Positions 1,319-20,984 of a DNA stretch of 21,917 nucleotides are shown piece after piece (position 1 is the stretch's first letter; each line of letters begins with the position of its first letter). The notes under the pieces were generated by a model. It was not told where the DNA came from. It saw only the letters and a program-made list of their open reading frames with translations, and ran no database searches. The position numbers and the translations under genes were made by a program. Origin of the DNA: a virus (lineage: Duplodnaviria > Heunggongvirae > Uroviricota > Caudoviricetes); the IMG/VR virus record IMGVR_UViG_2751185961_000012, positions 1 through 21,917 of that record. One strand, written 5' to 3'.

Positions 1319-1531
1319 TTATACGGTTGGTGAGGTGTCAGCTTCTTCTACCAGCTTTTCCAGTTCATCCAGCTTTCGGGAAAGAATTTCACCAAACAGA
1401 TGAAGTTCTGCATCTGCTGTAATCGGGATTGGAACAAATCGTATTCCACTTCTGGCAAGTTGATTTGCGATTTCCAGACACTGCCTTAATTCAACTGGTG
1501 ATGCCTTTGTCAACGTCGTTTTTTCGCTCAT
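1319..1531 (-). CDS. Hypothetical phage protein, about 70 aa (start trimmed to MSEKTTL)
   Basis: ORF 1319..1615 trimmed to the internal ATG so that it overlaps the methyltransferase gene end by only about 40 nt; acidic helical protein, no family recognised. Confidence 0.45.
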   Translation of the reverse strand: MSEKTTLTKASPVELRQCLEIANQLARSGIRFVPIPITADAELHLFGEILSRKLDELEKLVEEADTSPTV

Positions 1532-2117
1532 TGGTTTTCTCCAGAAATTTAACAATACCCGGAACCATCTCAATGGATGGTGTGCCGCATTGGTTACCCC
1601 ATACATCAAATCCATGCGAGGTGTGGCGGGCGAACAGTTCTATCCGGGGAACATCGCCAAGAAGTTGCACAAGCTTTTCTCGAACCATATCCGGCTTGCG
1701 GGAGTGATCAAGGCGTGGTGCAGTGAATGACTGGATTATTCCGGCGTTAATGCGTTCGGGCAGATTTCCTTTCACTGCAAAAAGGCAGTCTTCGCTGTTA
1801 GCGCGAGTGGTGCTGCCCATACCCATGACCAGCTTGTCGGTTTGTCTTTTCCCGCATTTGTTCCAGGTTAATCCTTTCATCGTCACCAGACGAAAGCCCC
1901 ACGCTTCTACAACCTTCAATGCTTCAAGTGGTTGTGTAGGCACCCACCACATAGCTAACAGGCAGTTATCCGCTGCCAGTTCCCATACCGGGAGGCGGCA
2001 GATATCCAGAAGACTCATGACCGGATATTTAAAACTTGCACCGCGTTGACCATCGGTTGCTTTGTCGCGAAATGTCCAGGGGGGATCTGCGTAAATGAGG
2101 GTGTATTTTTTTGTCAT
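1491..2117 (-). CDS. MT-A70 family DNA N6-adenine methyltransferase (phage orphan Dam-like MTase)
   Basis: 208-aa protein with the diagnostic DPPW catalytic motif (LIYADPPWTF) and MT-A70-like downstream blocks (LLAMWWVP, WGF, HSRKPD); no adjacent restriction endonuclease gene. Confidence 0.85.
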   Translation of the reverse strand: MTKKYTLIYADPPWTFRDKATDGQRGASFKYPVMSLLDICRLPVWELAADNCLLAMWWVPTQPLEALKVVEAWGFRLVTMKGLTWNKCGKRQTDKLVMGMGSTTRANSEDCLFAVKGNLPERINAGIIQSFTAPRLDHSRKPDMVREKLVQLLGDVPRIELFARHTSHGFDVWGNQCGTPSIEMVPGIVKFLEKTNERKNDVDKGITS

Positions 2118-2545
2118 AGCGCGTTTTCAAACTCATCAATGTAAAGTCCTGCTTTAATCAGTCGGCGACGGCGTTCGGCCTTTTGCACGTATTCCTCGCG
2201 ACAGTTTTTTGCTGCGTGTTCACGGCTTCTGCGACTGAATGGAGGAACGGCATTGCGTGAACGAGGTGTGTCACGACGAGGATTTGATTCGAGGGAGAAA
2301 AAGCGATCAACGATTCCGGTGTCTGTGGTGAATGGCTCTGAAGCCTTGATTTTCACAACCTTACTGCCTTTTGTCAGGCTGCGTGCTACCTTGTTGAACT
2401 CGCAAAGTGAAACACCAAATTTCTCTGCTATTTCACTACCAGTAACAGGACGACCACGAGACTGAATCATCCAGGTGACGCGTTCTTTTAACCCACGGAA
2501 GACACCGGGCCTTCCAGAACGCCTGTAGAAAGCGATCTGTTTCAA
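2114..2545 (-). CDS. Hypothetical basic protein with probable helix-turn-helix, 143 aa
   Basis: ORF whose stop overlaps the methyltransferase start (ATGA coupling); Arg/Lys-rich; HTH-like segment VTGSEIAEKFGVSLCEFNKVARSL. Confidence 0.55.
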   Translation of the reverse strand: MKQIAFYRRSGRPGVFRGLKERVTWMIQSRGRPVTGSEIAEKFGVSLCEFNKVARSLTKGSKVVKIKASEPFTTDTGIVDRFFSLESNPRRDTPRSRNAVPPFSRRSREHAAKNCREEYVQKAERRRRLIKAGLYIDEFENAL

Positions 2546-2562
2546 ATTTTTGTCTCCAGATA

Positions 2563-2587
2563 TGAAAACCCCGACGGGATGTCGGGG
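2563..2587 (-). terminator. Putative intrinsic terminator (CCCCGAC-GGGAT-GTCGGGG followed by TTTTC on minus strand)
   Basis: Perfect 7-bp GC-rich stem read directly; T-run follows on the minus strand; lies immediately downstream of the stop of the 2600..3112 gene. Confidence 0.55.
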
Positions 2588-2599
2588 TAGTGGGGGAGG

Positions 2600-3112
2600 T
2601 CAGAGGCTTAAGGTGAAGCCTTTTCGGGAATTTCGATCTGACAGTCTTGAAATATCCTGTAGCGTGCGGCGCATTTCTTCCGTCAGATGTTTGAAGGCGT
2701 TAAATTCAGCAACAGCGGCATCGACGTTATAGCCCTTGCTGTGTAGCTCGTTGAGGATGCGCATAGTTGGGCTTGGCATATCGAAGAGCACAGAAACGTC
2801 CAGGTTAAGAGTTTTTCGATCAACATAGCTCATCATGGAGTAGGGGTGATGTTCAGAAAACCACGAGAGAGGGTAGTTGATAGATAGTGTTGATTCTGGA
2901 AGCTGAAGTTGTTCTGGGATTTTTTGACTGAAATAGCAGTCTTCCAGTTTTTCGAACACATCCCACGCTAATTCAGATGTGCGTGTGCATACGACAATAA
3001 AAAACACGCTCGCGGCGTGTGTCTGTCGCGGTTGAATATCCGGGGTCTCAATCCCGACGCCAGATTTTGCTGGCGTGCGGAGAATATAATCCCGGATACG
3101 CGACGTTGTCAA
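2600..3112 (-). CDS. Paralog or remnant of the antirepressor C-terminal domain (C-terminal about 95 aa is near-identical to the C-terminus of the 12096..12734 protein)
   Basis: C-terminal region INYPLSWFSEHHPY...LFDMPSPTMRILNELHSKGYNVDAAVAEFNAFKHLTEEMRR matches 12096..12734; the annotated start is a non-ATG (TTG-type) codon, so this may be truncated or a pseudogene. Confidence 0.45.
   Translation of the reverse strand: MTTSRIRDYILRTPAKSGVGIETPDIQPRQTHAASVFFIVVCTRTSELAWDVFEKLEDCYFSQKIPEQLQLPESTLSINYPLSWFSEHHPYSMMSYVDRKTLNLDVSVLFDMPSPTMRILNELHSKGYNVDAAVAEFNAFKHLTEEMRRTLQDISRLSDRNSRKGFTLSL
2666..2882. repeat. Dispersed direct repeat copy A (about 220 bp, roughly 85-90 percent identical to 12162..12386)
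   Basis: Long runs of identical sequence read by eye, e.g. cggcgcatttcttccgtcagatg...ttgaaggcgttaaattc...ctgtgtagctcgttgaggatgcgcatagttgggcttggcatatcgaagagcac...ccacgagagagggtagttgat. Confidence 0.8.
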
Positions 3113-3179
3113 ACTGATGGCATTGCAGATCCCTACGCAATGTAATACTATGTGTTATACATTAATAACGGAACAAAAA

Positions 3180-3551
3180 ATGCGCATTTTTAAAAACGCC
3201 TGGTTTGAGCGATTTGCACGCAAAAACAAAATATCCGACCAGTCACTGCGCGAAATTGTTAAACAGGCTGATAACGGGCTTATCTCAGCAAACCTGGGTA
3301 ACGGCGTTATCAAGCAACGTCTGCCACGAGTCGGTGGCGGCAAATCTGGCGGTTATCGCACAATCATTTTCTATCGCGTCGGCACAAGGGCCTTTTTCGT
3401 ATATGCATACGCAAAAAATGAACGTGAAAATATAACCGCTACTGAGGAAAGTGCATTTCGGAAGGTGGCTCCTCACGTACTCAATCTAACAGATGAACAA
3501 CTGGCACAACTGATTCTACAGGGTCAGTTTACGGAGGTACCCAATGAGTAA
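3180..3551 (+). CDS. RelE/ParE-superfamily toxin, HigB2-like (Toxin_HigB2 type)
   Basis: Recalled HigB2 signature: glycine-rich basic block (RVGGGKSGGYRTIIFYR) followed by FFVYAYAKNEREN; toxin-first order with 8-bp overlap onto the HTH antitoxin gene; start trimmed to MRIFKNAWF. Confidence 0.7.
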   Translation: MRIFKNAWFERFARKNKISDQSLREIVKQADNGLISANLGNGVIKQRLPRVGGGKSGGYRTIIFYRVGTRAFFVYAYAKNERENITATEESAFRKVAPHVLNLTDEQLAQLILQGQFTEVPNE

Positions 3552-3864
3552 AAATTACCGCAGTGATGCGCTTGCATCCGTACATGAAATGATGGAATCG
3601 CTTCATGATATCGGCGCAGTAACGAAACAGACTATGCGAGAATTCGATGAACTCTGCCTGCAACCAGCACCTTCAATGTCTCCTGAAAGAATCCGGGAAC
3701 TCCGTGAGCGTGAACATCTGTCACAATCCGTCTTTGCCAGATACATGAATGTCAGTAAAAACCTGATATCTGACTGGGAACGCGGAGTGAAACGCCCTGG
3801 TGGTCCCGCCCTGCGACTTCTTTCCGTTATTGAAAAAAACGGGATTCAGGCCATAAATGTTTGA
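3544..3864 (+). CDS. HigA2/XRE-type helix-turn-helix antitoxin
   Basis: 106-aa protein with C-terminal XRE-like HTH (IRELREREHLSQSVFARYMNVSKNLISDWERGVKRPGGPALRLL); translationally coupled to the upstream toxin gene. Confidence 0.7.
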   Translation: MSKNYRSDALASVHEMMESLHDIGAVTKQTMREFDELCLQPAPSMSPERIRELREREHLSQSVFARYMNVSKNLISDWERGVKRPGGPALRLLSVIEKNGIQAINV

Positions 3865-3884
3865 TTACCTTCACTACCGCGCCG

Positions 3885-4166
3885 TCATTCTGGCGGCGCT
3901 TCCCCCAGAGAAGAAATATCATCACCGGATTGCCACATCCACTCCGGCCCCTGCCATCTCAGATCCGGTGAATCATTTCTCTCAGGAATAACTATTACGT
4001 TCCTTTCCATCCGCTCCCTTTCTATCGCCATCACAGCCAATGCTGCAACCATGATGTATTTTTGCTCGTCGGTTCCTGTTTCATAGCGCCACATGAGGGT
4101 AAACTCGGGGCGATCAGTAACCTCAATGATTTCGTTAATTTCTTTAATTTCGCGAGGAATATCCAT
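3885..4166 (-). CDS. Hypothetical protein, about 93 aa
   Basis: Minus-strand ORF convergent with the HigA gene; start trimmed to MDIPREIKE; its ATG overlaps the ATG of the divergent 4165..4839 gene within a CATG palindrome. Confidence 0.4.
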   Translation of the reverse strand: MDIPREIKEINEIIEVTDRPEFTLMWRYETGTDEQKYIMVAALAVMAIERERMERNVIVIPERNDSPDLRWQGPEWMWQSGDDISSLGEAPPE

Positions 4167-4839
4167 GGGTTTAGTCTCCTTTGACATTACATGCCCGCAC
4201 TGTTTAAAAGAGCGAGCTGTTATTGAGGCATTTGCCGAAAAACAAATTGAAAAAACACCTCTTTTTAACGTCGCTTTTGTATGCAGAAGTTGTCATCAAG
4301 GAGGTGTTGCTATTGTTGAAATCCCATCAGACCACTATCACGGCCCTATGGCGGAAAGCCAGAAAAAAGACCTTGATATTCTGATTTCAGGAAATAGCCA
4401 GTACCGTTTCCGCAAGATCTATCCTGCGGTCAAAAAAATTACCGCACCAGAATCTACGCCCCCGGTTGCAGACCGTACTTTTGTTGAGGCAAAAGAGGAT
4501 TTACAGAGGAGGCGGTACGACACAGTGGTTATTCTTTGTCGCAGAGTCCTCGATATCTCAACGAAAAAACTGCTCGGCGATGAAGCAGGAAAAGAATCTC
4601 TGTCGCAACGTATTCAGATGATTTACAAAAAAGGCCTGATCACTGAACAGATGAAGGAATGGGCTCATATTGTACGAATAGATGCCAATAAAGCAGTTCA
4701 TACAGATGAAGTATTCACACCAATTGAGGCAAGCCAGATACTGAGTTTTACCGAAATGTTTTTAGTCTACGCCTTCACTCTGCCTGCAATGGTGGAAGCC
4801 AGATGTGACCAAAAAAGATCAGATTCAGCCTCTATATGA
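4165..4839 (+). CDS. Zinc-ribbon plus DUF4145-domain protein (candidate defence or regulatory effector), about 224 aa
   Basis: N-terminal Cys pairs CPHC ... CRSC; C-terminal half matches the recalled DUF4145 pattern (RRVLDISTKKLLGD ... LSQRIQMIYKKGLI ... AHIVRIDANKAVH ... LSFTEMFLVYAF); the upstream part of the long ORF (4093..) is antisense junk, so the start is placed at MGLVSFD. Confidence 0.65.
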   Translation: MGLVSFDITCPHCLKERAVIEAFAEKQIEKTPLFNVAFVCRSCHQGGVAIVEIPSDHYHGPMAESQKKDLDILISGNSQYRFRKIYPAVKKITAPESTPPVADRTFVEAKEDLQRRRYDTVVILCRRVLDISTKKLLGDEAGKESLSQRIQMIYKKGLITEQMKEWAHIVRIDANKAVHTDEVFTPIEASQILSFTEMFLVYAFTLPAMVEARCDQKRSDSASI

Positions 4840-4912
4840 ATCTCTTTTCTGAACACGTAAATACTACTCCGACACACAGTAAGCCTCCCCCCCGTCATTC
4901 ACGACGGGGATG

Positions 4913-5650
4913 TCATGTTCCAAACTCTGCGTTGTTCTCCGCCTCCAGGATTTCTTCGATCTTCTGTACTCCCCGATTATTATAGCGAAAGGTTTCTACC
5001 TGCTTATCCGAGTGCGGGGATTTGTCGATGAACCATTTCCCGTATTGTTCTGTTTTGAGCATGTAGGTATTGGCAATGCGACCAACCTTGTTAGCGGATA
5101 TTTTGAGTTGCACTCCAACTTCTGACGCCGAATAGTAATGTTCATTGATCATCGGTAGCGGGATTACGTTAGCGCCTACAACGGGATTAACCAGGCTGGC
5201 GGCAACGACCTGTTTGGCTTCAGGGGCAAGGTTGGGGAGGAATCCGAAAAGGTCTTTCATTGTATCGACGGTCATTTTCAGCGCCCGCGCTTTGCGGAAT
5301 TCCTCAAGGCCGTTAGTCGAATGTTTCGTGGTGGTTTTTTGTTGCAGTTGCTGTTGCATTGACTCCAGTTGATCGACCAGCGAACGACGGACGGATTTAG
5401 ATTCACGAGCGGCAACCCGAAGCGCTTGTTTATAGGTCATCACAATAACAACCTGATCCGCACCACCTTTTTTCTTATCCATGGGGGTTACGAAATTTTC
5501 GTAACCCTCCCCCTCAAGTTCATCTTTGATGCGTGCAATGAAGTCGTTGTTGCGTACTTCTTTTTCACCGCACAGTCTCCGCGCTTCATTCACCATTTTC
5601 AACAGAGCCTGGCTGTCGATAGTTCCATTTTTCATTATATTATTTTTCAT
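4913..5650 (-). CDS. Phage antirepressor-like protein with KilA-C-type C-terminal domain
   Basis: 245 aa; C-terminal block YYSASEVGVQLKISANKVGRIANTYMLKTEQYGKWFIDKSPH fits the KilAC pattern of P22 Ant-like proteins; GAGAGG Shine-Dalgarno about 8 nt upstream of ATG at 5650. Confidence 0.6.
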   Translation of the reverse strand: MKNNIMKNGTIDSQALLKMVNEARRLCGEKEVRNNDFIARIKDELEGEGYENFVTPMDKKKGGADQVVIVMTYKQALRVAARESKSVRRSLVDQLESMQQQLQQKTTTKHSTNGLEEFRKARALKMTVDTMKDLFGFLPNLAPEAKQVVAASLVNPVVGANVIPLPMINEHYYSASEVGVQLKISANKVGRIANTYMLKTEQYGKWFIDKSPHSDKQVETFRYNNRGVQKIEEILEAENNAEFGT

Positions 5651-5739
5651 CGTGTTAACCTCTCAAGCTCGCCGTAGCGAGTTCGCATAAAAGAAATCCC
5701 CGCGAGTGCGAGGATTGTTAGTTGCGCTCTGCTGCTGAT

Positions 5740-6587: not shown

Positions 6588-6959
6588 TCACTCTCCTTTT
6601 CCCTGAAGCATTGCAGCGCGGCAGGCTTTCCAGCCTCTCACCTCTGCAATAGCGGCAACAGCATCAACCGCGTACATGCTAAGAGGATTAGGCATTGGTT
6701 TTTCTTCCGGTACTACTGGAACGGGGGGAGCGGCGTAGACCTCAATAATTCCATTATCAATAGGCCATTCTCCATCCTTGAGATAATCACTTGTGCCGTC
6801 AACTTGCTGTTCTGCAATGTGGAAAGCACCTATTGGTTTTGCTTCCAGCGATGCCAGAGCAATTTCATAAGCCCGGCGCTCAATATTGTCTCTCACGTCC
6901 AGGCTGCCTATGCGCTCTTTGATTTCTTTAATCAGTTCTTTGTCGGTTAAAGTGGTCAT
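6588..6959 (-). CDS. Hypothetical phage protein, 123 aa
   Basis: N-terminus MTTLTDKELIKEI parallels MTTITDKKQY of the adjacent DUF551 protein, suggesting a shared N-terminal module or duplication. Confidence 0.5.
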   Translation of the reverse strand: MTTLTDKELIKEIKERIGSLDVRDNIERRAYEIALASLEAKPIGAFHIAEQQVDGTSDYLKDGEWPIDNGIIEVYAAPPVPVVPEEKPMPNPLSMYAVDAVAAIAEVRGWKACRAAMLQGKGE

Positions 6960-6975
6960 GAGTTAACCCTTAATA

Positions 6976-7018
6976 CTTTAAAAAGGGCGGACATCAGCAA
7001 TCGGCAACTGATGCCGCC
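6976..7018 (-). terminator. Putative intrinsic terminator (long GC-rich hairpin GGCGGCATCAG...CTGATGTCCGCC followed by TTTTT on minus strand)
   Basis: Imperfect 11-12 bp inverted repeat read directly; followed on the minus strand by CTTTTTAAAG; about 100 nt downstream of the 7116..7592 gene. Confidence 0.55.
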
Positions 7019-7115
7019 AATGACTAAACACAGCAAGGTTGTTATTCACAACTGGAAGCGCACGATCAAAGTTAAGTTTGATGACGATATCAAGTTGGCG
7101 GAAAATACGGATGGA

Positions 7116-7592
7116 CTATTGCTCAGTGTCGTTCAATGTCGAGTGAGGACATTCGCCCTGCTCTCGTAACAGAGACAGAAGCATGGACACCCCCTCACGA
7201 TGTGATGATTGATGAGTGTCGATCCCTGAATGATTGATGTTGTTAAACTCATACACCTTGCTCAAGGCAAAAGCCTGAACGATATTCCAGAATACCAATG
7301 GGTCTGTTTTCTGCGAATTATTCACTCTTTCAACAGAATTAATTGATTTGTCGTTTTCTGTTATATTGTGTTTGATGTTTTGTTGTCCTTTATTAAGGCG
7401 GCAATTTTGAATATGTTCCTCGTGCTTTTCATTGTCATAAGCATACATCCCGACAAAAACATCTCGCATGTTACGGGATATATTTTCCAGATTCGCCTTT
7501 GGTTCCTTTGTTAAATTTATCACCGATAAATGGTCTTTAAGCGTATCCGCAGCTATTTTCTGAATATCCTCTGGTAAATCTTTAAATTGCAT
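7116..7592 (-). CDS. Hypothetical protein, 158 aa (AT-rich moron-like gene)
   Basis: Visibly AT-richer than neighbouring genes; followed by its own terminator; no family recognised. Confidence 0.55.
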   Translation of the reverse strand: MQFKDLPEDIQKIAADTLKDHLSVINLTKEPKANLENISRNMRDVFVGMYAYDNEKHEEHIQNCRLNKGQQNIKHNITENDKSINSVERVNNSQKTDPLVFWNIVQAFALSKVYEFNNINHSGIDTHQSSHREGVSMLLSLLREQGECPHSTLNDTEQ

Positions 7593-7668
7593 AGTATACC
7601 CTCCAAGAACTGTGTATTTTCTCGTGAAATATGAGCGATATGTCGTGACGTCCCTGTCACAGATTTCA

Positions 7669-8490: not shown

Positions 8491-8553
8491 GTATATTTAC
8501 CTTTAATTTATGTATTTAGGGATAATGCGCGAGCGTTTTAAGGCGGGGATTAT

Positions 8554-8901: not shown

Positions 8902-8975
8902 ATTAATATCTCCGTGTAGAGGTGTGTTAAGGCTTCAGTTGTTCACTGCATTTAAAGCCTGGTTTTGTTTGTGAA

Positions 8976-9563
8976 TTAAAAATTATCGCCACCGTACTGC
9001 CAGTAACCCGGGTCGTCCGTGTGATTCGGGTTTGCGTTTTTGCTGCGATTGTCTTTGTCTTTGAGAGTGGAAACCATATTTGCTACCGTTTCTGGTTTCT
9101 TTCCTTCAGCTTTTTCTTTCAGTGTCTGCCCTGTTTCTGCAATGAATGGAATGCGGATTTCCATCTGGTAACTGTCTGCGCCAGTCTTTCTGTTTGTGGT
9201 TAATACTTTCTGGAGCACTAACCCGATTTTCTTTCCGTGAAACTCAGGTGCAACATATTTACTGACGGAAACCATATGTTGCGTTAACTGCCCAATTCCT
9301 GTGCATCCCATCATGGCGTGAATAATGCTCGCCCCAAATTTATTTTCAGTGCCGTCATTCTTCTGAACACAAACACTGAGATATTGGATTTTCCGTCCGT
9401 CGTCGGATTCTCCAGAAAACTCAATGAATCGGGCACCTTTTTCTGATTGCTTGAGTTCTGCTTCGGTGATGTTAATGATATGCGCACCCGTTTCGGTAAT
9501 AAAACCACCTTGTCCGGCGGTTAGTGCTGATTCTTCATTGTAAGTAAAAATTACATCATCCAT
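8976..9563 (-). CDS. Hypothetical phage protein, 195 aa, translationally coupled to exo
   Basis: Start overlaps the exo stop by 8 nt; Gly/Lys-rich; function unknown (single-strand-binding-like role is speculative). Confidence 0.55.
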
Positions 9564-10254
9564 TAGTTATTAACCCCCCCCATTGTTCTCCAAATACAAA
9601 ACCAATTTCCGCCAGTGCTTCGTCCATTTTGTCGATGAACTCCGGCACCATCTCATCAAAACTCGCCATGTACTTTTCATCCCGCTCGACCACGACATAA
9701 TGCAGGCCTTCACGCTTCATACGTGGGTCGTAGTTGGCGAAGTACCAGGCGTCCTTGTCTGTAACCCACATGCTGAATTGCACCTGGGCCATGTAAGCAG
9801 GCTTGATAGCGTCAAAGCCGCCAAGCCGGAACTTCATGAAGTCGCGGGAAGTGAAGGGGCATTTAAGCTCAAGACCGTTACCGTCGCTGCATAAACCGTC
9901 GGGAGAGCAGGCGGTGCGCATGCTTTCGTCACGAAAAATTATTGGCGTTTCCGCGACGGTAACATCCGCGATAAATTCGAAGAGGGCACGGGCATCATCT
10001 TCGTATTGCTTTCCCCATGCGAGCGACTTAGCGTTAACTTCCGGTGCCACGCCAGTACAAACTTCAGCCAGCAGGGTGTGGAAGTATGACATTTTTGTAT
10101 CAGGCCATTTGCTGCCTGAACGTGGTTTGGCTATGACGTTGTGAACTTCTGAAGCAGTGATAACACCGAGTCTCAGCTTGTGCCATCCATCATCGCCCTG
10201 GTCGAGGCTGGTAATATCCACGCCAGTTCGCTGGAGAATAATTTCTGGTGTCAT
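9556..10254 (-). CDS. exo: Lambda-type 5'-3' exonuclease (Red-alpha / YqaJ family)
   Basis: 232-aa protein near-collinear with lambda Exo as recalled ([11 protein letters not shown] ... [28 protein letters not shown] ... [20 protein letters not shown] ... [10 protein letters not shown]); ATGA coupling with the upstream recombinase gene. Confidence 0.9.
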
Positions 10255-11201
10255 GACACGGCCTCGCTGTTATTTTCCGTGGTGGCGTGAACTTTCGCTT
10301 CCGCCGTGGCCTTGTTTCTGGCAGCTTTCTTTTTGACAAAATCAAGCGTTTTGACAGCTTCTTCCTGAGAGAGAGCTTCATGTGATGCAATCGTGCGACG
10401 GAATGTTTTGGAACATACGGGAAGCAGGTCATCCCATGTCTTGTTAATTTCGGTGATTGCCTGAGTGATCTCATTGATAATCTCATCTGATGCGGGAGTG
10501 ACGTCACGCTCAGGGATGTGATCAGCATTCAGGATGATACCTTCACCGGCCTGAGTGTTCAGGTAGTCGATAGCTGTATCCAGGCGATCGCGACGGGGCC
10601 AGTATTTGCTGGCGCGCTTAACAATGGCTTTTCTGGCCATTTCATCGGGGAAACTATCCCACGGGCTACTTCCTCCGTTATTTCCGGCTTTGCTGCACGC
10701 CCTGATGACCTCGATTTCCCTGTTGCTCATCTCTTCGGTCAGATAGTCGCCTTCGGATGTTTTTACGACACAATAACCGCCAATGCGTGCGCCCCTGTCT
10801 ACGAATGGGTTGTATTTGTGCGTGGGGGCGCAGTCAATACCGTTGGACTCGTAAATGTCCTTCTCGTAAACAAGTTTGCATTGCCCCCACTGAATGGCTC
10901 CTGTGACCTGTGCCAGATGCAGAAGCCCCATATAACTGATATCCAGGCATACAGCCTTTTTTCGTGGGACCAGATACGCCAGCTTGCTGGCCGGGTTCAG
11001 GGTTATGCCGATGGCGGCAACATTGATGATAGCGTTCTGTGCGCTGGGCAGATTTGCCCGTGCTGTGTCAGCCAGAAAGGCATTTTTCTGGAATTGCTGA
11101 ATTGCAAACTGACTTTCCTTCGCCCATGTCAGCGTCGGTTCAGTTAATGCCTCGCAGAAAAAGCGCTCCTGCTGCTTAACAAATTCAACGATATCGAACA
11201 T
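10251..11201 (-). CDS. RecT-family single-strand annealing recombinase with lambda Bet-like C-terminal tail
   Basis: Core matches RecT blocks ([37 protein letters not shown]...PW...[16 protein letters not shown]); C-terminal tail ([11 protein letters not shown]...[17 protein letters not shown]...[17 protein letters not shown]) resembles the lambda Bet C-terminus; start set at the ATG with AGGA Shine-Dalgarno (MFDIVEF). Confidence 0.85.
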
Positions 11202-11217
11202 TTTTTGGTCCTGAAAA

Positions 11218-11499
11218 TCAGAAAGGACAGGGGGAGAATTTTCTCTCCCATTCTTCTTCCGCCCGAGCATAGGCGATCGCTGAGATATAATCGTTGTACG
11301 CCTCTTCAGCTTTTTCGCCAGTGAGTGCCAGTTGGGCTTCTTTGGGTAAAAAAAGGCTGCTCATAAGCAATGGTTTATCGGGGAACATGCTGATAAGCTC
11401 CTGCGCCCGATCGTCAATCCATTTATCCTTTTCATCCTGAATGTGCTGATTAACCCAGCGACGCTCCTCTATTCGGTCACAGGTGAGGTATGCGTTCAT
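11218..11499 (-). CDS. Gam-like host-nuclease inhibitor (divergent), 93 aa
   Basis: N-terminus MNAYLTCDRIEERRW parallels the lambda GamS start MNAYYIQDRLEAQSW; located immediately upstream of the recombinase, as gam is in lambda. Confidence 0.5.
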   Translation of the reverse strand: MNAYLTCDRIEERRWVNQHIQDEKDKWIDDRAQELISMFPDKPLLMSSLFLPKEAQLALTGEKAEEAYNDYISAIAYARAEEEWERKFSPCPF

Positions 11500-11519
11500 G
11501 GCGGAACTCCTGATTTCGG

Positions 11520-11801: not shown

Positions 11802-11812
11802 GATATTTCCTT

Positions 11813-12025
11813 TCAGGCTGGTGAGATTAACGGTTGGCCTTTATTGTTCAGGTAAACTTCTATTGCATCTGAGATAATGCGAATTTTTTCAATCAGTGAA
11901 TGTGCGTAAAGTGCATTATTAACGTTCGCTGACGCCATGTAATAACGCCCGTTGTAAAGAATTGCTGTGCCGGGTTTAACGTCCTCGCGAGAAACTAATG
12001 CGGTTCCGTAGTGAGGTTTGAGCAT
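11813..12025 (-). CDS. Hypothetical phage protein, 70 aa
   Basis: Small ORF in the leftward operon; no family recognised. Confidence 0.4.
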   Translation of the reverse strand: MLKPHYGTALVSREDVKPGTAILYNGRYYMASANVNNALYAHSLIEKIRIISDAIEVYLNNKGQPLISPA

Positions 12026-12095
12026 GACAAATCCTCCGGTTAATTAATCCAGATATTTAATTTAATCCCCGATATGTGGTCGGGGATGGGGTTAA

Positions 12096-12734
12096 TTAAA
12101 GATTAACGTTGAAACCAAAGCGGGAAGACTTTTCCGATGTGCGGGAAATATCCAGCAATTTACGGCGCATTTCTTCCGTCAGATGCTTGAAGGCGTTAAA
12201 TTCGGCGACAGCGGCGTCAACGTTATAGCCTTTGCTGTGTAGCTCGTTGAGGATGCGCATAGTTGGGCTTGGCATATCGAAGAGCACGGAAGCATCAAGG
12301 CTGATAACCTTGCGATCAACATAGTTCATCGTGGCGTAGGGATGGTTATCTGAGAACCACGAGAGAGGGTAGTTGATGTTCATTGGTGCAGGTAAAAGGC
12401 TCTGGCGAAGTTTCTTTTCGCACTCGATGAAGTATCGGCGTATCTGGCGGCCTTTTTCGTTACGTTCAACCATCGCAAGCTCTTTGGCTGTATCGAGAGT
12501 GAGGTGGTAGTCCTTGCGGTTGTGACCGCCTCTACCTTTTCTTTGCTCCCCCGTTTTGGGGAGCAAAATAAAATCTTGGTTTTCTGTAAATTCATACTCG
12601 GAGATGCGGATTCGTATCCACGTGGAAAAGTCTTTTCCGACTTCGAGAAACGCGTGTAAATCACGGGCATTACAGAACAGGGTAGTTTCGTTGTCGATAG
12701 TGCCGTTGAATACGGGGATGAGTTGAGAGTTCAT
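12096..12734 (-). CDS. Phage antirepressor, AntA-type N-terminal domain plus shared C-terminal domain
   Basis: N-terminal block LIPVFNG...ARDLHAFLEVGKDFSTWIRIRISEYEFTENQDF...YHLTLDTAKELAMVERNEKGRQIRRYFIECEK matches the AntA antirepressor domain; C-terminal 95 aa duplicated at 2600..3112. Confidence 0.75.
   Translation of the reverse strand: MNSQLIPVFNGTIDNETTLFCNARDLHAFLEVGKDFSTWIRIRISEYEFTENQDFILLPKTGEQRKGRGGHNRKDYHLTLDTAKELAMVERNEKGRQIRRYFIECEKKLRQSLLPAPMNINYPLSWFSDNHPYATMNYVDRKVISLDASVLFDMPSPTMRILNELHSKGYNVDAAVAEFNAFKHLTEEMRRKLLDISRTSEKSSRFGFNVNL
12162..12386. repeat. Dispersed direct repeat copy B (partner of 2666..2882)
   Basis: See copy A; same orientation, about 9.5 kb apart. Confidence 0.8.
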
Positions 12735-13000
12735 ATTTTATGTCCTTTGCATTTGTTCAGATAGCCCTGTGTTCAGCAGGGCGGCCAGGTACTTGAACAC
12801 CGTGCAAAGTCGGCCCGTATCCTTAACCTTTCGGCTGTTTTTCGGTATACGCGCTACCCGACCATATCTGAAAAATGGACATAAAAAAGCCGCATGACTG
12901 ACGGGTGCGGTCTCCGCTTTGCAAGGTGTGTTCAGCACCATGAGGTGGAATATATCCCCGTCGATGTGGATTTGTCAAGGTTGCTTTGGCAGAAACATGT

Positions 13001-14306: not shown

Positions 14307-14335
14307 TTGACAAAAACACTGCCTGTAACTATAAT
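14307..14335 (+). promoter_or_regulatory. Consensus sigma70 promoter (TTGACA - 17 nt - TATAAT) upstream of hicA
   Basis: Exact -35 and -10 hexamers with a 17-nt spacer read directly; about 30 nt upstream of the hicA start. Confidence 0.65.
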
Positions 14336-16587: not shown

Positions 16588-17301
16588 TCAATCAAAAGTA
16601 TCATCATTCCACTGCGATTTGATGACCTTTCCGACAAACTGGCAGTTTTCGTTACACTCAATCATGTCGAATCGTGGGTTGAGCGGCTCCAGGTACGCTT
16701 TACCGCTCTCACGAATGAATCGTTTGAAGGTGAATTCATCGCCGTTCATTCGGGCCACGCAAAAATCGCCATCCTCGATTTCCCGTTCAGGGTCAACGAG
16801 TATCAGCATACCTTCAGGGAAGCTGGGTTTACCTCCCTGTGGCGCGGTCATTGAATGCCCCTTAACTTCCAGCCAGAACGACCTGTTACTGGCTTTTGTG
16901 GTGGTGGAGATCCACTTAATCGCATCCTTTGCGGTGTACGAAATATCATCCATTGTGAATGCGCCAGCCTGTACGCAGGAGAGTAACGGATATTCGTAAG
17001 CAGGGACACGAGTTAATGGCTCTTCAATCGCGAGCGCCATTTCTGCAATAGATTTTGCCAAGCTGGGGCTGAAATCTCCGACCTTTACATTCAGTAACTT
17101 AGCAAGCTGCGCTGCGTGACTGGCATTTATGGCGTTGATGCCAGCCATTAGCTGATTAACGGCACTTTGGGTAACACCTAGTTCATAGGCTAATGACTCC
17201 TGTGACAAGCCTAACTCTTTCTTTTTAGCGATGAAAATGCTTTTAAGACGCTTGGCGTCTTCCAGTTGCTCAGGGGTTAACGGTTTCTTTTTCATGTTCA
17301 T
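16588..17301 (-). CDS. cI: Lambda-type CI repressor (N-terminal HTH, C-terminal S24/LexA-like autocleavage domain)
   Basis: 237 aa, collinear with lambda CI as recalled ([17 protein letters not shown] ... LGLSQESLA ... [31 protein letters not shown] ... [19 protein letters not shown] ... LEPLNP); divergent from cro. Confidence 0.9.
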
Positions 17302-17396
17302 ACCATATCACCTTTGGTTATATGTAATGAAATATCTGCGGTGTTGACACTTTAATAACTGTGCGTAATGATATGGGCATTTTGAAGGAGTCAGTT
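17302..17396. promoter_or_regulatory. cI-cro intergenic switch region: operator-like sites, rightward promoter and Shine-Dalgarno for cro
   Basis: Lambda-like operator half-sites (TATCACC in TATCACCTTTGGTTATA; CTGCGGTG resembling lambda CTGGCGGTG); perfect -35 TTGACA at about 17344-17349 with a weaker -10 (AATGAT/TAATGA) 16-17 nt downstream; AAGGAG at 17385-17390. Confidence 0.6.
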
Positions 17397-17600
17397 ATGG
17401 CGATGAAAAAAGAGACCCTGGCTGATTACGTATACAGGTTCGGTCAGAAGAAAGCCGCTAAGGACTTTGGTGTGGCGCAGAGCGCGATCAGTAAAGCGCT
17501 TCTTGTCGGACGTGAAATTTACGTCAAAACCTTTGATGACGGCAGAGTTGAGGCGGAAGAGGTTCGACCGTTCCCTGCGTTCGTAAGAGGCGATGATTAA
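17397..17600 (+). CDS. cro: Cro-like repressor
   Basis: About 67 aa with lambda Cro-like blocks ([28 protein letters not shown] ... [12 protein letters not shown]); AAGGAG Shine-Dalgarno 6 nt upstream of ATG at 17397. Confidence 0.75.
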
Positions 17601-18131: not shown

Positions 18132-18509
18132 ATGTCAGCAGCAACCAAATCGGCACTGATCCGTACACTGAGCACTGTACCACTGAGAACAGAGGAGCGT
18201 TACAGCTTTCTGGCTGATGTTGTAACGCTCCTTGAGTCACAGGGGATGCATGTGGCAAGCAATGTCACAGTAAGAATCGATGGCAGAAATTTCCGTGTTG
18301 ATATTCTCGCAACAGCAAAAACTGGTGGGAGTGTGGCTATCGAGATCGATCGTAGCTCTCCGCGATCCCGCTCAGTCATGAAATTGCGTGAATTGGCACG
18401 TCGTGGCACTGAAGGCTTTGTGTTGCTTCGAATGCCAAAGAAACTGACCAGTTATAGCGATGCTGGGATCGATATCATCCCGGCGAATGGCAAGGGGGCG
18501 TCATGCTGA
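18132..18509 (+). CDS. Hypothetical protein, 125 aa, first gene of the replication module
   Basis: Translationally coupled to the helicase gene (overlapping stop and start); possible nuclease-like D...E-x-D arrangement (FRVDIL ... AIEIDR) is speculative. Confidence 0.5.
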   Translation: MSAATKSALIRTLSTVPLRTEERYSFLADVVTLLESQGMHVASNVTVRIDGRNFRVDILATAKTGGSVAIEIDRSSPRSRSVMKLRELARRGTEGFVLLRMPKKLTSYSDAGIDIIPANGKGASC

Positions 18510-20023
18510 AAATCACCCCAAACTTTGCTCAGGAGCGCGGTTTAAACCAGCTGCGGCACCAGTGGAAACAGCATCGCACGTACCTGATGTATGCACCCAC
18601 TGGCTCTGGCAAAACTGGTCTTGCAGCATTCGTCACTGCCGGAATGGTTGAACGTGGTATGCGGGTGATGTTTGTCTGTCCGTACACCATCCTGCTGAAC
18701 CAGACAGCGGAACGTTTCACCGAATACGGTTTGCCCTGGGAAGAAATCAGTTTTGTATGGCGTGATCACCCTAACTATGACCCGTCACGACTGATTCAGA
18801 TTGCCAGTGCCGACACGCTGATCCGTCGTGAGTTTCCTGACAACATCGATCTGCTGATCATCGATGAAGCACACATGAAGCGTCGTGCGTTACTTGAGGT
18901 TATCCGGGACAGAGACATCAGGGTTCTTGGACTTTCCGGCACCCCGTTCGCAGCCTGGATGGGGAAGTACTACGAATGCCTGCTCAAGCCTACAACGATT
19001 CGTGAACTTATTCAGCGTGGTGATCTGAGCGATTACGAGTTTTTTGCCCCCTCAATGCCTGATCTGGCTGGCGTAAAAACCAGTAACACCGTATTTGGAC
19101 GGGATTACAACGAGGAGCAGCTCGCATCCATCATGGGGAGTTCGGATCTGGTTGGCGATATCGTTCGCAACTGGCTTGAGAATGGCGAGGATTTGCCGAC
19201 GATCTGCTTCTGCGTGAATGTTGCGCATGCGAATTTTGTTACCCGTGAGTTTTTACAGGCCGGTATTGGTGCAGAGGTGATGACGGCAGATACCCTCCAT
19301 GATGAACGACAGGACATCATTCGCCGTTTTGAAGAGGGCGCGACCAAAATAATTGTCAACGTTGGTGTACTGGTTGCGGGATTTGACAGCGATGTTCGCT
19401 GCCTGATCTACGCCCGTCCGACAAAATCAGAAATCCGTTGGTTGCAGTGCATAGGTAGAGCGTTACGTACAGCCCCAGGTAAAAAACGTGCGTTGATTTT
19501 CGACCATTCTGGTACGGTTCATCGGCTGGGCTTCCCCGAGGATATCGAGTATGACGAACTGCCGGGTAAAAATGACGGAATGAAAGCGTCTGCTGGCGGT
19601 GGCGAGGTTAAGGCTGAGAAACTTCCCAGAGAATGCCCCAAATGCCACTTCATGAAGCCTGCTGGTGTACACATGTGTCCCAAATGTGGGTTTCGTCCTC
19701 TTGGTGGCGATGATGTGGCAACAGACCGCGATCGAAAACTCTCTCGCGTAAACAAAGGGAAACGCGAATACAGTCGCGAGGAAAAGCAGCGTTGGTGGAG
19801 TGAGATCAAGGGGTATCAGAATTACCGCAACGCGACGGGTAAACCCCTGAGTGACGGATGGTGCGCTCATACCTACAAGGAGAAGTTCGGTGTGTGGCCT
19901 AAAGGCTTCAGTAATGCGCCGCTGCAAACCTCAGTTGAGGTATACAACTTCATCAAGTCAAAGACCATTGCCTATGCCAAAGGGCGCAAGAAAGCCATGA
20001 CAGGAGGCCAGCATGCAGACTAA
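18503..20023 (+). CDS. Superfamily-2 DEAD/DEAH-box DNA helicase with C-terminal zinc ribbon (phage replication helicase)
   Basis: Walker A APTGSGKT, DEAH box LLIIDEAHM, further helicase motifs (LSGTP; QCIGRALR); C-terminal CPKCHF...CPKCGF zinc ribbon. Confidence 0.85.
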   Translation: MLKITPNFAQERGLNQLRHQWKQHRTYLMYAPTGSGKTGLAAFVTAGMVERGMRVMFVCPYTILLNQTAERFTEYGLPWEEISFVWRDHPNYDPSRLIQIASADTLIRREFPDNIDLLIIDEAHMKRRALLEVIRDRDIRVLGLSGTPFAAWMGKYYECLLKPTTIRELIQRGDLSDYEFFAPSMPDLAGVKTSNTVFGRDYNEEQLASIMGSSDLVGDIVRNWLENGEDLPTICFCVNVAHANFVTREFLQAGIGAEVMTADTLHDERQDIIRRFEEGATKIIVNVGVLVAGFDSDVRCLIYARPTKSEIRWLQCIGRALRTAPGKKRALIFDHSGTVHRLGFPEDIEYDELPGKNDGMKASAGGGEVKAEKLPRECPKCHFMKPAGVHMCPKCGFRPLGGDDVATDRDRKLSRVNKGKREYSREEKQRWWSEIKGYQNYRNATGKPLSDGWCAHTYKEKFGVWPKGFSNAPLQTSVEVYNFIKSKTIAYAKGRKKAMTGGQHAD

Positions 20024-20984
20024 GAAGGCAGCGGCCGGGCATTGGGGGCGAATTTTTGAATATTACGGCATGCCTCCTGTTACTGGCTTGAAACATTATA
20101 GCGGCCCCTGCCCGATATGTGGTGCCAGAGGTAAATTTCGCTGTGATGATAAGGATGGTTCCGGTTCATGGATTTGTGTCTGTGGTCACGGGGACGGGAT
20201 GAATCTGTTGCAACTTGCCACGGGTAAGCCCTGGGTGACGTTGTGTGATGAAATCGATCGGCTGATCGGAAATACCTGGAAGAGGGAGAAAGTCAGCCAG
20301 CCTGTAACAGAGATAAGCAGAAAGCGGGAGCTGGTCATAGATAAGTTTGCCGGACTCCCGTGTCTGCGGGGTACAACAGGTGAGGCGTACCTGCAGGGGA
20401 GGGGAATACTCCAGTTACCGACCGAATCCGTGCGTTTTTGTGACCGTCAGATCGCCAGCGGGCGCGAATATCAGGCAATTTACGCTATTGCAACAGATGA
20501 CAAAGGTTCTCTTTGCTATCTGCATCGTACGTTGCTGGATGGTGATCGCAAGGCGAATGTAGAGGCGGCTAAAAAAATGACCGCGCTACAGGAGTTGCCT
20601 GGTTTGCAGCATGCCAAATCGGTGGCAATACGCCTGTATCCGGTGTCGTCCACTCTGGGGATAGCCGAGGGTATCGAAACTGCGCTTTCATGCCGTCAAA
20701 TCTTCCGCTGCAATGTGTGGTCAACAATGAACTCCGGTTTTATGGAGAAGTTTATTGCGCCACCAGGCGTTAATCACCTGATTATCTTTGCAGACAATGA
20801 TGAGCACGGCGCAGGTCTGGCGGCTGCCTTTAAATGTGGGCATAAGAATCTCATGAGTCGTAATGACGTTGAGAAGGTCAGCATTCGCTGGCCTGACTTG
20901 CCGGATTTTAACGACATGCTCATTCAGGGGTGTGAAGCCCGTGAACATGTGTTGACGCGCAAATTCAAAGCGGAGGCTGCCTGA
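20013..20984 (+). CDS. Toprim-domain DNA primase with N-terminal zinc-binding domain
   Basis: N-terminal Cys/His cluster (CPICGARGKFRCDD ... WICVCGHGDG) and toprim signatures (IAEGIETALS; IIFADNDEHGAG); overlaps the helicase gene end by 11 nt. Confidence 0.75.
   Translation: MQTKKAAAGHWGRIFEYYGMPPVTGLKHYSGPCPICGARGKFRCDDKDGSGSWICVCGHGDGMNLLQLATGKPWVTLCDEIDRLIGNTWKREKVSQPVTEISRKRELVIDKFAGLPCLRGTTGEAYLQGRGILQLPTESVRFCDRQIASGREYQAIYAIATDDKGSLCYLHRTLLDGDRKANVEAAKKMTALQELPGLQHAKSVAIRLYPVSSTLGIAEGIETALSCRQIFRCNVWSTMNSGFMEKFIAPPGVNHLIIFADNDEHGAGLAAAFKCGHKNLMSRNDVEKVSIRWPDLPDFNDMLIQGCEAREHVLTRKFKAEAA

Follow-up and report, generated by a model that had tools for sequence, protein, structure and literature searches.

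Two antirepressor cassettes with a common C-terminal module and predicted antisense-RNA control in a probable Stx-phage-like Escherichia coli prophage, one of them truncated by a deletion

Introduction

In phages P1 and P7 the ant gene is regulated by c4, and in the APSE phages a BRO gene is preceded by c4 and isrK, and an ORF6N gene by sRNA-Xcc1 (PMC7313666). In the Salmonella prophage Gifsy-1, IsrK is encoded upstream of the antirepressor-like gene anrP, its own terminator is read through and the RNA acts in trans; in the published model it trans-activates translation through the orf45 region and does not exert c4-type repression (Hershko-Shalev et al. 2016, PMC4825925). Ant of Salmonella phage SPC32H binds its repressor directly (Rep-Ant complex, PDB 5d50) and is a stand-alone protein of 86 residues. 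The occurrence of c4 and isrK RNAs beside antirepressor-like genes is thus already documented, as is domain shuffling in this class of proteins. Here, we describe a window of 21,917 nucleotides (the whole stretch analysed, from the IMG/VR record IMGVR_UViG_2751185961_000012), which in all likelihood belongs to a lambdoid E. coli prophage of Stx-phage-like type and covers its early-left, immunity and replication region. Its antirepressor loci are compared with the systems above and with the corresponding loci of related phages.

Results

A search for repeats across the whole window returned a single repeat of at least 30 nt, present as two direct copies of 233 nt:

2649..2881, minus strand: left copy, coding core of the C-terminal module (repeat search, blastn)
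12145..12377, minus strand: right copy (repeat search, blastn)

The copies are 86.3% identical (blastn: 32 mismatches, 0 gaps, E 3e-78). Their offset of 9496 also separates the two stop codons (2600 and 12096), and the longest perfect run within the repeat is 56 bp (2736-2791), the next longest being two runs of 23 bp. A sequence-only reading of this DNA had announced a direct repeat of about 220 bp with 85-90% identity and copies 9.5 kb apart, and self-alignment bears this out, with the correction that the right copy, placed at 12162..12386, was 9-17 nt off. The repeat codes for a C-terminal module of about 95 aa (the C-module) of two minus-strand antirepressor genes. The C-terminal domain claimed to be common to both is real, with 74 of 96 residues identical, and there is a strong case that the repeat is a constant C-module present in both antirepressor cassettes.

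The right cassette (12096-12978) is intact and consists of the following elements:

12949..12978, minus strand: promoter-like site, TTGACA-18-TATATT (11/12, consensus match)
12881..12934, minus strand: leader, occupying the position of isrK (a1/b1 sites, hairpin)
12775..12863, minus strand: c4-like antisense RNA (Rfam sRNA-Xcc1 RF02221)
12745..12759, minus strand: a2/b2 target sites (complementarity)
12096..12734, minus strand: intact antirepressor gene, 212 aa, AntA domain and C-module (Pfam, PHROG)

The AntA domain previously read into this gene was recovered as PF08346 at residues 22-92 (about 12459-12671; E 7e-27, 94.2 bits, GA 27), and the C-module takes up residues about 117-212. Three E. 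coli genomes, which annotate the gene as antA/AntB family, share the surrounding 2-kb region at 99.3% identity, and homology to AntA cassettes in other phages stops at 12978. The leader harbours a1 (TGAACAC, 12928-12934) and b1 (TGCAAAG, 12917-12923) and a hairpin with a T-tract at 12881-12910; no Rfam family matched it at E<=1. Between promoter and gene, on the same strand, lies a structured RNA of c4 type, an outer stem around two hairpins, which matches the full sRNA-Xcc1 model (65.9 bits, GA 53, E 3.8e-10). It carries b' (CTTTGCA, 12803-12809) and a' (GTGTTCA, 12794-12800) and sits 40 nt upstream of the ATG of the AntA gene (12734), an arrangement without an icd-like coupled upstream ORF. 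Site a2 (TGAACA) is found at 12754-12759, and b2 (TGCAAAG, 12745-12751) overlaps the gene's own Shine-Dalgarno sequence, AAGGA. Since the RNA matches sRNA-Xcc1 and not C4, and the leader has no Rfam match, it is topology and complementarity that give the cassette its c4 character. A 67-aa ORF overlying the c4-like RNA (12738..12941) found no PHROG match and is probably spurious; these positions should be annotated as an RNA element and not as a protein-coding gene.

Complementarity was measured in four cassettes by counting exact complementary matches and comparing the counts with those of randomly shuffled c4 sequences. This procedure replaced RNAduplex, which on whole RNAs yielded long, unspecific duplexes. 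In every cassette the leader and the RBS region both contain sites complementary to the a'/b' sequences of the c4 RNA, and the sequences involved differ from cassette to cassette. The right cassette of the window shows 7-nt matches at both its leader and RBS sites. The observed complementarity was reached by 0-2 of 5000 shuffles in three cassettes and by 57 of 5000 in the fourth, and the matrix of a'/b' complementarity across cassettes was strictly diagonal. The relatives have the order isrK, C4 (70.6-78.9 bits), antirepressor gene at both loci; Rfam C4 (RF01695) was matched in these relatives only and not in the window.

At the left locus mechanical ORF calling gives an ORF of 170 codons (2600..3112), within which several elements can be distinguished:

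3083..3112, minus strand: sigma-70 promoter-like site, TTGACA-18-TATATT (11/12, consensus match)
2999..3076, minus strand: isrK-family sRNA (Rfam RF01394), corresponding to the a1/b1 leader in c4 cassettes and now orphaned
2968..2969, no strand: deletion junction (comparison with E. coli SCU-104 and phage PhiR12_3)
2600..2968, minus strand: 3' remnant of an ORF6N-type antirepressor gene, codons 104-225 and stop (phrog_1760 match, relatives)

The isrK match begins 7 nt past the -10 hexamer and covers the model from 1 to 77 of 77 (73.6 bits, GA 50, E 2.6e-14). The RNA has two hairpins and a predicted intrinsic terminator (stem 3004-3020, then a T-tract), with a1 (TTGAGAC) at 3045-3051 and b1 (TCAACCG) at 3029-3035. 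The c4-a1b1 family RF03163 overlaps it at 3037-3089, scoring 46.3 bits (GA 46.7). At both cassettes the promoters and terminators are consensus matches only. The stretch 2962-3869, which includes the left promoter and the isrK-type RNA, is 98.9% identical to SCU-104.

To the left and right of 2968/2969 the window aligns with SCU-104, but 442 bp of that genome (L002 3966..4407) are missing at this point. The missing segment carries the C4 RNA (all but 5 nt), the RBS together with a2/b2, and codons 1-103, among them the entire ORF6N domain. This domain lies at residues 13-98 and 12-96 of intact relatives of 225 and 223 aa, and Pfam PF10543 found no match in 2600..3112. Residues 47-166 of the ORF align with positions 102-231 of the anti-repressor family phrog_1760 (232 positions in all), so that its C-terminal half alone is left. 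The first ~48 codons (2969-3112) are the promoter and the isrK-type sRNA in translation, the TTG "start" at 3112 coinciding with the opening triplet of the -35 box, and the coding remnant amounts to 2600..2968 only. It keeps the linker and the complete C-module and differs in one residue from the PhiR12_3 protein (compared by eye). None of its in-frame ATG, GTG or TTG codons is preceded by a usable Shine-Dalgarno sequence.

The 170-codon ORF is most likely a read-through artefact, and the remnant would not be expressed. The ORF with an unrelated N-terminus and a non-ATG start described earlier does exist, but that N-terminus stems from the deletion together with read-through of an sRNA gene. 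The accompanying suspicion that the left copy is non-functional was well founded: with the ORF6N domain, the RBS and codons 1-103 deleted, the locus is, as judged from its sequence, non-functional as an ORF6N antirepressor gene. An annotation as pseudogene remnant plus isrK-type sRNA is appropriate for 2600..3112. A CCCAC pentamer is found 2 nt from each breakpoint; no identity was found at the junction itself and we therefore claim no mechanism for the deletion. The same junction did not occur among the matches listed from 5,426 complete E. coli genomes, in which every listed match to the junction query was split in two and spanned 642-720 bp in the record.

The recombination genes expected between the two copies were found: an SSB-like gene (8976..9563), a RecE-like exonuclease (9556..10254), RecT (10251..11270) and a Gam-like gene (11218..11499). 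A further gene had been regarded as a third antirepressor:

4913..5650, minus strand: Roi-like gene, PHROG phrog_1726 'anti-repressor' (annotated Roi in PhiR12_3)

The KilAC domain attributed to its product could not be recovered, as no Pfam domain matched at E<=1 and no ANT/KilAC (PF03374) was found in Pfam or NCBIfam. Residues 160-239 match phrog_130 'Ant' weakly (E 3e-4). No c4 or isrK RNA was found upstream of the gene. It stands outside the repeat system, and its label as a KilAC antirepressor should be dropped.

The prophage's own repressor is a homologue of lambda cI with an autocleavage domain, unlike Rep of SPC32H. SPC32H Ant is controlled by LexA. A scan of the window for LexA boxes (CTGT-N8-ACAG, 1 mismatch) gave 7 matches against 7.3 expected, none of them near either cassette promoter, and the scan thus offers no hint of the SOS control that governs the Gifsy/SPC32H antirepressors.

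The C-module occurs in 221 places in 105 Stx-type phage records, most of which have 2-3 copies, and it is found behind six N-terminal domains (KilA-N, Rha, ORF6N, Bro-N, AntA and P22_AR_N). Some alleles (P0007, P0008) are recombinant within the module; other N-terminally truncated module ORFs (P0006, P0008, P0010) also occur, as does a stand-alone family of 77 aa, phrog_17980. No Pfam or NCBIfam model matches the module. A word-indexed protein search with it returned no more than 13 E. coli proteins, near-identical and for the most part partial, and more distant relatives were reached by exhaustive search. Neither phmmer with the full AntA protein (nothing significant) nor Foldseek with a model of the module (nothing) found a partner in the PDB. 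Similarity to SPC32H Ant (PDB 5d50 chain E) was found in both sequence profile and fold, a link that is weak but two-way at an identity of about 19%. The C-module thus appears to be a distant homologue of this repressor-binding protein and is, by analogy, probably the repressor-binding part of the antirepressor. It differs from SPC32H Ant in forming the C-terminus of two-domain proteins with predicted RNA control.

Gene order is shared, with 96-99% DNA identity over most of the window, with PhiR12_3 (PV340552.1) and with Stx2a-converting phages such as Stx2_EC3734. These phages, too, have at least two C-module antirepressor genes, at an int-proximal and a kil-proximal locus. In PhiR12_3, on which a literature search returned nothing relevant, the left gene is intact; on the right, Rha replaces AntA as the N-domain, and a C4/isrK pair is present. 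Stx2_EC3734 differs in harbouring an AntA cassette and a partial tandem copy at the left locus, and an AntA cassette is also found at the int-proximal locus of E. coli O26 RM10386. At both loci, homology with relatives is lost precisely at the module's 5' boundary, at 2881 against Stx2_EC3734 and at 12383 against PhiR12_3. These breakpoints and the six partner domains support the earlier proposal that the repeat marks module shuffling.

Discussion

Both loci very probably follow the immI design of phage P1. As in the immI region of P1/P7 (c4 - icd - ant), a1/b1, a structured c4 with a'/b', a2/b2 at the RBS and an antirepressor gene would lie on one transcript, specificity resides in short loop and target sequences that differ between elements, and the cassettes of the relatives match Rfam C4 RF01695 and c4-a1b1 RF03163. 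Unlike immI, the cassettes described here have no icd-like coupled ORF and belong to a lambdoid phage with a lambda-type cI in place of P1 C1, and the intact cassette of the window matches sRNA-Xcc1, not C4. The likeness of the window's antirepressors to P1 Ant is one of cassette layout and not of established protein kinship. From the order of elements (strong promoter, a1/b1 leader RNA with terminator, c4-like RNA, a2/b2 at the RBS, antirepressor gene) we infer that the c4-like RNA would pair with a2/b2 and keep the antirepressor untranslated, that the a1/b1 leader RNA could compete for the c4 loops, and that the antirepressor, once made, would neutralise a repressor via its C-module. By the 442-bp deletion the left cassette lost its c4 RNA, RBS and ORF6N domain, leaving a promoter, an orphan isrK-type RNA and an apparently untranslatable remnant. 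Cassettes of this kind, with predicted antisense-RNA control, are typical of Shiga-toxin-type lambdoid phages. The repeat and the decay on the left are ordinary phage mosaicism and gene decay, and nothing here will surprise the specialist.

The window is nevertheless a clean example of how Stx-type antirepressors are assembled from a constant module and an interchangeable unit of promoter, specificity RNAs and N-domain, the module serving as the putative patch of homology at which this unit is exchanged. The copies were, we consider with good confidence, united by the mosaic recombination usual in these phages. The sequence-only reading had instead suggested a duplication within the prophage, with the 233-bp repeat as a RecA substrate for deletion of 9.5 kb and with three antirepressors layering induction. 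The repeat is indeed real, direct and endowed with a 56-bp perfect core, the prophage encodes RecT and an exonuclease, and natural recombinant alleles with crossovers inside the module occur. Shen & Huang reportedly found in 1986 a minimal processing segment of ~25-30 bp for RecA-dependent recombination, which the core exceeds, and such a deletion is possible in principle. A chimeric query representing its product, however, matched only cassette swaps ending at the promoter in the databases. Duplication is contradicted by the degree of identity, which is 86% between the two copies but 96-99% between each locus and its counterpart in other phages, and by the two-locus layout already present in PhiR12_3 with both genes intact, FHI_NMBU_10 having the right copy only. 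As to layered control, there is a single intact cassette, the third gene has neither KilAC nor a c4/isrK RNA, cI is lambda-like with a cleavage domain, and the control layer that is visible is the c4-type antisense RNA. This combined scenario is accordingly unlikely, and mosaic recombination is the reading retained here. The link between the module and SPC32H Ant and the cassette-specific a/b pairing may help work on Stx-prophage induction and cross-talk.

The remnant at the left locus might be thought a working minimal antirepressor, free of c4 control and translated from transcripts extending past the isrK terminator. Its whole module is kept, one residue off the PhiR12_3 protein by eye, its SPC32H homologue is a stand-alone chain of 86 residues, isrK-type terminators are leaky in Gifsy-1, and the truncated ORFs and phrog_17980 described above offer parallels. 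Against this, Shine-Dalgarno sequences at a suitable spacing are lacking for all in-frame start codons, translation from the earliest ATGs (codons 93 and 94) would omit the conserved INYPLSWF..HPY part, and a terminator is predicted upstream; the allele, absent among the matches listed from the E. coli genomes, shows no sign of selection. We regard this as the most doubtful of the alternatives. Slightly less so, though still improbable, is that the left locus functions through its orphan isrK-type RNA (2999-3076), which would work in trans, as decoy or activator, on the c4 RNAs that other prophages in the cell encode with this a/b specificity. The Gifsy-1 RNA offers a parallel: it belongs to RF01394, is transcribed from a promoter of its own, ends in a leaky terminator, and acts in trans on its cognate long transcript; the gene directly downstream is antirepressor-like, with a conserved, non-coding-looking stretch in between. 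Gifsy-1 differs in the published trans-activation through orf45, whereas the isrK RNA of the window is without its downstream gene. In the window the promoter, a1/b1 and terminator are intact within the stretch nearly identical to SCU-104, the SCU-104-type C4 pairs with the left a1/b1 whereas the window's c4-like RNA does not, bar a trivial A/T run, and genomes matching the left region have up to 4-7 matching places. Yet the RNA may be a mere leftover of a recent deletion. There is correspondingly little likelihood that the deletion made the left cassette a regulatory RNA locus in its own right, possibly also a c4-independent minimal antirepressor, whose orphan RNA titrates the cognate c4 of co-resident Stx-type prophages; if it did, cognate antirepressors would be triggered in an RNA-level cross-talk between prophages. 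The a'/b' sequences cognate to the orphan a1/b1 are GTCTCAA/GGTTGAT.

The two cassettes and their setting

The window carries one intact and one decayed antirepressor cassette of the c4/isrK-controlled kind that is common in Stx-type phages. Four modest points are new: the exact anatomy of the left cassette's decay, the cassette specificity of the a/b pairing across four cassettes, the exchange of a unit of promoter, RNAs and N-domain at a constant C-terminal module, and the weak, two-way link of that module to a solved antirepressor, SPC32H Ant. By PHROG, Pfam and PDB-sequence scans, the window belongs to a lambdoid prophage and spans its early-left arm, immunity region and replication genes:

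16588..17301, minus: lambda-cI homologue (3bdn_A, E 7e-90)
17361..17600, plus: cro-like
18503..20023, plus: helicase
20013..20984, plus: primase
11813..12025, minus: kil
11218..11499, minus: gam-like
10251..11270, minus: recT
9556..10254, minus: recE-like exonuclease
8976..9563, minus: ssb-like
4913..5650, minus: Roi-like
1491..2117, minus: MT-A70 methylase
3117..3864, plus: RelE/HTH pair (RelE/ParE name of 3117..3551 from the SCU-104 annotation)

The nearest relative is Escherichia phage PhiR12_3 (96-99% identity over 910-2968, 3036-5720, 6859-12383 and 16574-21917), followed by prophages of E. coli SCU-104 and FHI_NMBU_10 and many Stx-converting phages.

The direct repeat is real and well above chance expectation, since the whole window, searched with seed 11 and a 30-nt minimum, yielded a single repeat family, a direct pair of 233 nt at 2649-2881 and 12145-12377 with 86% identity, with a blastn E of 3e-78 (86.3% identity, 32 mismatches, 0 gaps), a shared reading register and a perfect core. 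The sequence-only reading was right about the repeat itself, its right-hand coordinates being 9-17 nt off. The copies, both on the minus strand, keep register with the stop codons at 2600 and 12096 and code for the C-terminal ~96 residues of ORFs 2600..3112 and 12096..12734, 74 of the 96 being identical; codon differences are 23 synonymous and 22 non-synonymous. Identity is uneven, reaching 93-100% in a core at ~2690-2795 that holds a 56-bp perfect run and dropping to 50-80% in the flanks.

The intact right locus

The right locus shares the left one's design, with the cassette intact. Its gene, 12096..12734, encodes 212 aa, an AntA domain (PF08346, E 7e-27, residues 22-92, as proposed earlier) followed by the shared module, and is preceded on the minus strand by these elements:

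12978-12949, minus: promoter-like site (consensus match), almost identical to the left one
12934-12928, minus: a1 TGAACAC, upstream site
12923-12917, minus: b1 TGCAAAG, upstream site
12910-12881, minus: leader end, hairpin and T-tract, upstream of the AntA gene
12863-12775, minus: full-length sRNA-Xcc1 match (Rfam, 65.9 bits against a gathering score of 53)
12809-12803, minus: b' CTTTGCA, complement of b1 and b2
12800-12794, minus: a' GTGTTCA, complement of a1 and a2
12759-12754, minus: a2 TGAACA, RBS-proximal
12751-12745, minus: b2 TGCAAAG, RBS-proximal, overlapping the Shine-Dalgarno AAGGA of the ATG at 12734

The sRNA-Xcc1 consensus shares the C4 topology of an outer stem enclosing two hairpins. 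A 67-aa ATG ORF (12738..12941, minus) is probably not a gene, because it overlies the c4-like RNA and leader and has no PHROG match.

The decayed left locus

The anti-repressor family phrog_1760 spans 232 positions, and residues 47-166 of ORF 2600..3112 align with its positions 102-231. SCU-104 and PhiR12_3 have an intact gene at this locus (225 and 223 aa, with ORF6N at residues 13-98 and 12-96). Alignment to SCU-104 gives a clean junction, window 2968|2969 corresponding to 3965|4408 of that sequence, with 442 bp absent from the window. The SCU-104 minus strand holds, by Rfam scan, isrK at 4515-4438, C4 antisense RNA at 4412-4328 (70.6 bits) and the gene start at 4274; from the relatives' layout within the missing 442 bp, the deletion took all of C4 but 5 nt, the RBS region and codons 1-103, the whole ORF6N domain. 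The following elements are present at the left locus:

3112-3083, minus: promoter-like site TTGACA-18-TATATT (consensus match)
3089-3037, minus: c4-a1b1 motif overlapping the isrK match (46.3 bits against a gathering score of 46.7)
3076-2999, minus: full-length isrK-family RNA (Rfam, 73.6 bits against a gathering score of 50)
3051-3045, minus: a1 TTGAGAC of the orphan RNA, kept
3035-3029, minus: b1 TCAACCG of the orphan RNA, kept
3020-3004, minus: terminator hairpin of the isrK RNA, kept upstream of the junction

The TTG "start" of the ORF falls on the opening three bases of the -35 hexamer, and the ORF's first ~48 codons are promoter and sRNA in translation, open in frame by chance; a weak Phage_ASH match (residues 9-53) falls within this stretch. 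What had been taken for an ORF with an unrelated N-terminus is actually a deletion remnant over a promoter and an isrK-type sRNA. The remnant proper, 2600..2968 (122 codons), differs by one residue from the PhiR12_3 protein in a comparison by eye, and no usable Shine-Dalgarno was found at its in-frame ATG, GTG or TTG codons. A junction-spanning query against 5,426 complete E. coli genomes found the deletion allele in none of the matches listed, since each breaks into two segments that cover a 642-720 bp span of the record.

Other altered alleles were seen. In P0006, a 131-aa E. coli protein, the translated C4/RBS region runs directly into '...LSWFSDNHPY' of the module, an independent allele with the entire N-terminal domain deleted and the RNAs kept, the converse of the window's deletion. 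In phage Stx2_EC3734 a second Xcc1-type RNA (4646-4558, minus, 69.3 bits) beside a complete AntA cassette precedes a 95-aa AntA N-terminal fragment (4518..4231, minus); 4231-4646 is a partial tandem copy of the cassette, another decayed allele.

Pairing of the cassette RNAs

In P1 and P7, as summarised in PMC7313666 from Citron & Schuster 1990, c4 RNA regulates an antirepressor gene via complementary upstream sites. The pairing pattern of the right locus recurs, in other sequences, in the three C4 cassettes of SCU-104 and PhiR12_3: GTCTCAA/TTGAGAC with GGTTGAT/ATCAACC, GTGCTAA/TTAGCAC with GTTTCGA/TCGAAAC, and GTCCTAA/TTAGGAC with CCTTGATTG/CAATCAAGG. Scored as c4 nucleotides within 6-mers complementary to both leader and RBS region, the four cassettes gave 14, 18, 14 and 7 nt, where shuffles averaged 0.4-0.9 and reached the observed value in 2, 0, 1 and 57 of 5000 cases, respectively. 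All off-diagonal entries of the cross-cassette matrix were zero. The cassette-specific a/b sequences amount to compensatory variation among cassettes, which predicts that the cassettes would be mutually "hetero-immune". The orphan left a1/b1 is complementary to the SCU-104-type C4 and not to the window's own c4-like RNA.

This control layer is of an already known kind, given reports on Gifsy-1, where the isrK promoter drives the downstream antirepressor-like anrP, the isrK terminator is leaky and the long transcript is a trans target of the short IsrK RNA (PMC4825925), and on APSE phages, with the same RNA families upstream of BRO and ORF6N genes (PMC7313666).

The isrK (RF01394) and c4-a1b1 (RF03163) matches overlap on one element (2999-3089, minus), also in SCU-104 and PhiR12_3, and seem to describe one RNA, the a1/b1 leader plus terminator of a c4 cassette; in the Rfam output isrK has no clan and c4-a1b1 is in CL00128. 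Phage_ASH (PF10554) matches above cut-off (39.2 and 28 bits against 26) lie on N-terminal extensions of database proteins; the observation covers sequence L005 (its own 13593-13800, minus), P0015, P0017, P0006 (annotated 'ash family protein') and window 2969-3112. These extensions translate the isrK-terminator-to-C4 region, so a share of the 'Ash family' may be a conserved RNA gene read spuriously as protein.

Origin and exchange of the two copies

The copies had been read as a duplication within one prophage. They do not stem from local duplication, because they are 86% identical to each other against 96-99% between the surrounding loci and the same loci in other phages, PhiR12_3 holds both loci intact, and FHI_NMBU_10 has the right half (window 7111-15260, 97.5%, AntA gene included) with a different int end and no left locus. 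The proposed module shuffling is borne out: mosaic breakpoints fall at the module's 5' edge. Homology to Stx2_EC3734 ends at window 2881, where an AntA N-domain is joined to a left-type module, and homology to PhiR12_3 ends at 12383, where a right-type module follows a Rha N-domain that comes with an isrK and a C4 of its own. RNA type goes with N-domain (C4 with ORF6N and Rha, Xcc1-type with AntA), and the other boundary of the AntA cassette is the -35 box at 12978. P0007 and P0008 combine a right-type first half with a left-type tail, and P0001 and P0002 join an ORF6N linker to a right-type module. These breakpoints and recombinant alleles make the module a natural crossover site between phages. 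The two-copy layout is common among Stx-converting and related E. coli phages, since a tblastn search of 50,697 phage records with the module gave 221 places in 105 records, nearly all of such phages, with 2-3 places in most records among the matches listed.

The earlier suggestions of a 9.5-kb deletion between the copies and of layered control are speculative. A 56-bp perfect core in an 86% repeat could permit rare RecA- or RecT-mediated deletion, going by minimal-homology figures for such recombination. The predicted hybrid (window 2300-2765 joined to 12262-12990) was found contiguous in eight E. coli records at ~89% identity (e.g. O26 RM10386). In these the match goes no further than the promoter, upstream of which a Roi-sized gene and ea22-type genes take the place of window 13001 onward; they were rejected as deletion products and are cassette swaps at the int-proximal locus. 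The hybrid query thus found no product of the 9.5-kb deletion in E. coli genomes.

PHROG assigns the third gene, 4913..5650, to phrog_1726 ("anti-repressor", E 1.6e-94), and its PhiR12_3 counterpart is annotated Roi. The KilAC domain ascribed to it was not recovered: Pfam gave no ANT/KilAC or other match at E<=0.01 and NCBIfam none, and the Rfam scan placed no c4/isrK RNA upstream. Its antirepressor label comes solely from the family label of phrog_1726.

The constant module

Neither Pfam nor NCBIfam models match the module, and an exhaustive search of 1.84 billion cluster representatives gave only 22 relatives at E<=1e-3. The domains preceding it in 19 sequences scanned were KilA-N (5), Phage_pRha (3), ORF6N (3), Bro-N (2), AntA (1) and P22_AR_N (1). 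An AlphaFold model from 23 sequences (moderate confidence, pLDDT 72.9) predicts one short helix, a beta-hairpin and a further three helices, of which the C-terminal one is long; Foldseek found no match for it in the PDB. Two independent tests of the module converge on 5d50 chain E, the anti-repressor of the Rep-Ant complex of a Salmonella temperate phage, a weak but two-way link to SPC32H Ant. It was the sole significant match of the module HMM among PDB sequences (E 8.6e-4 untrimmed, 1.1e-4 with the trimmed profile; next match E 0.19). From this convergence we infer that the module is probably the repressor-binding part of these proteins. They are not needed for the prophage's own SOS induction, because its cI is lambda-like with an autocleavage domain. 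Gifsy antirepressors act on other prophages, according to Lemire et al. 2011 as cited in PMC7380047, and by analogy those with the module may do so too.

Other features of the window

The replication genes (18503-20984, plus) encode a helicase (506 aa) and a primase/DUF7146 protein (323 aa) in place of lambda O/P; non-lambdoid replication of this type has been described in some Stx phages. Two toxin-antitoxin pairs lie on the strand opposite the early-left operon: a HicA/HicB-like pair (14365-14960, plus; HicB is phrog_9151, HicA is annotated in FHI_NMBU_10) and a RelE/ParE-like toxin with HTH antitoxin (3117-3864, plus), whose promoter region is divergent from and adjoins the left isrK promoter. 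Between the immunity region and the early-left genes, a 303-aa ORF (15248-16159, minus; phrog_11747, function unknown) weakly resembles SppA and the Clp-fold 'SDH family' serine proteinases, with an NCBIfam match far short of the cut-off (E 2e-15). It looks like a variable insert, because homology to FHI_NMBU_10 and PhiR12_3 ends at ~15260 and 14210 and restarts at ~16554 and 16574, respectively. A DicF-like RNA match (RF00039, 6985-7032, minus; 35.3 bits, under the gathering score of 48, E 2e-4) recurs at the same place in SCU-104 and PhiR12_3.
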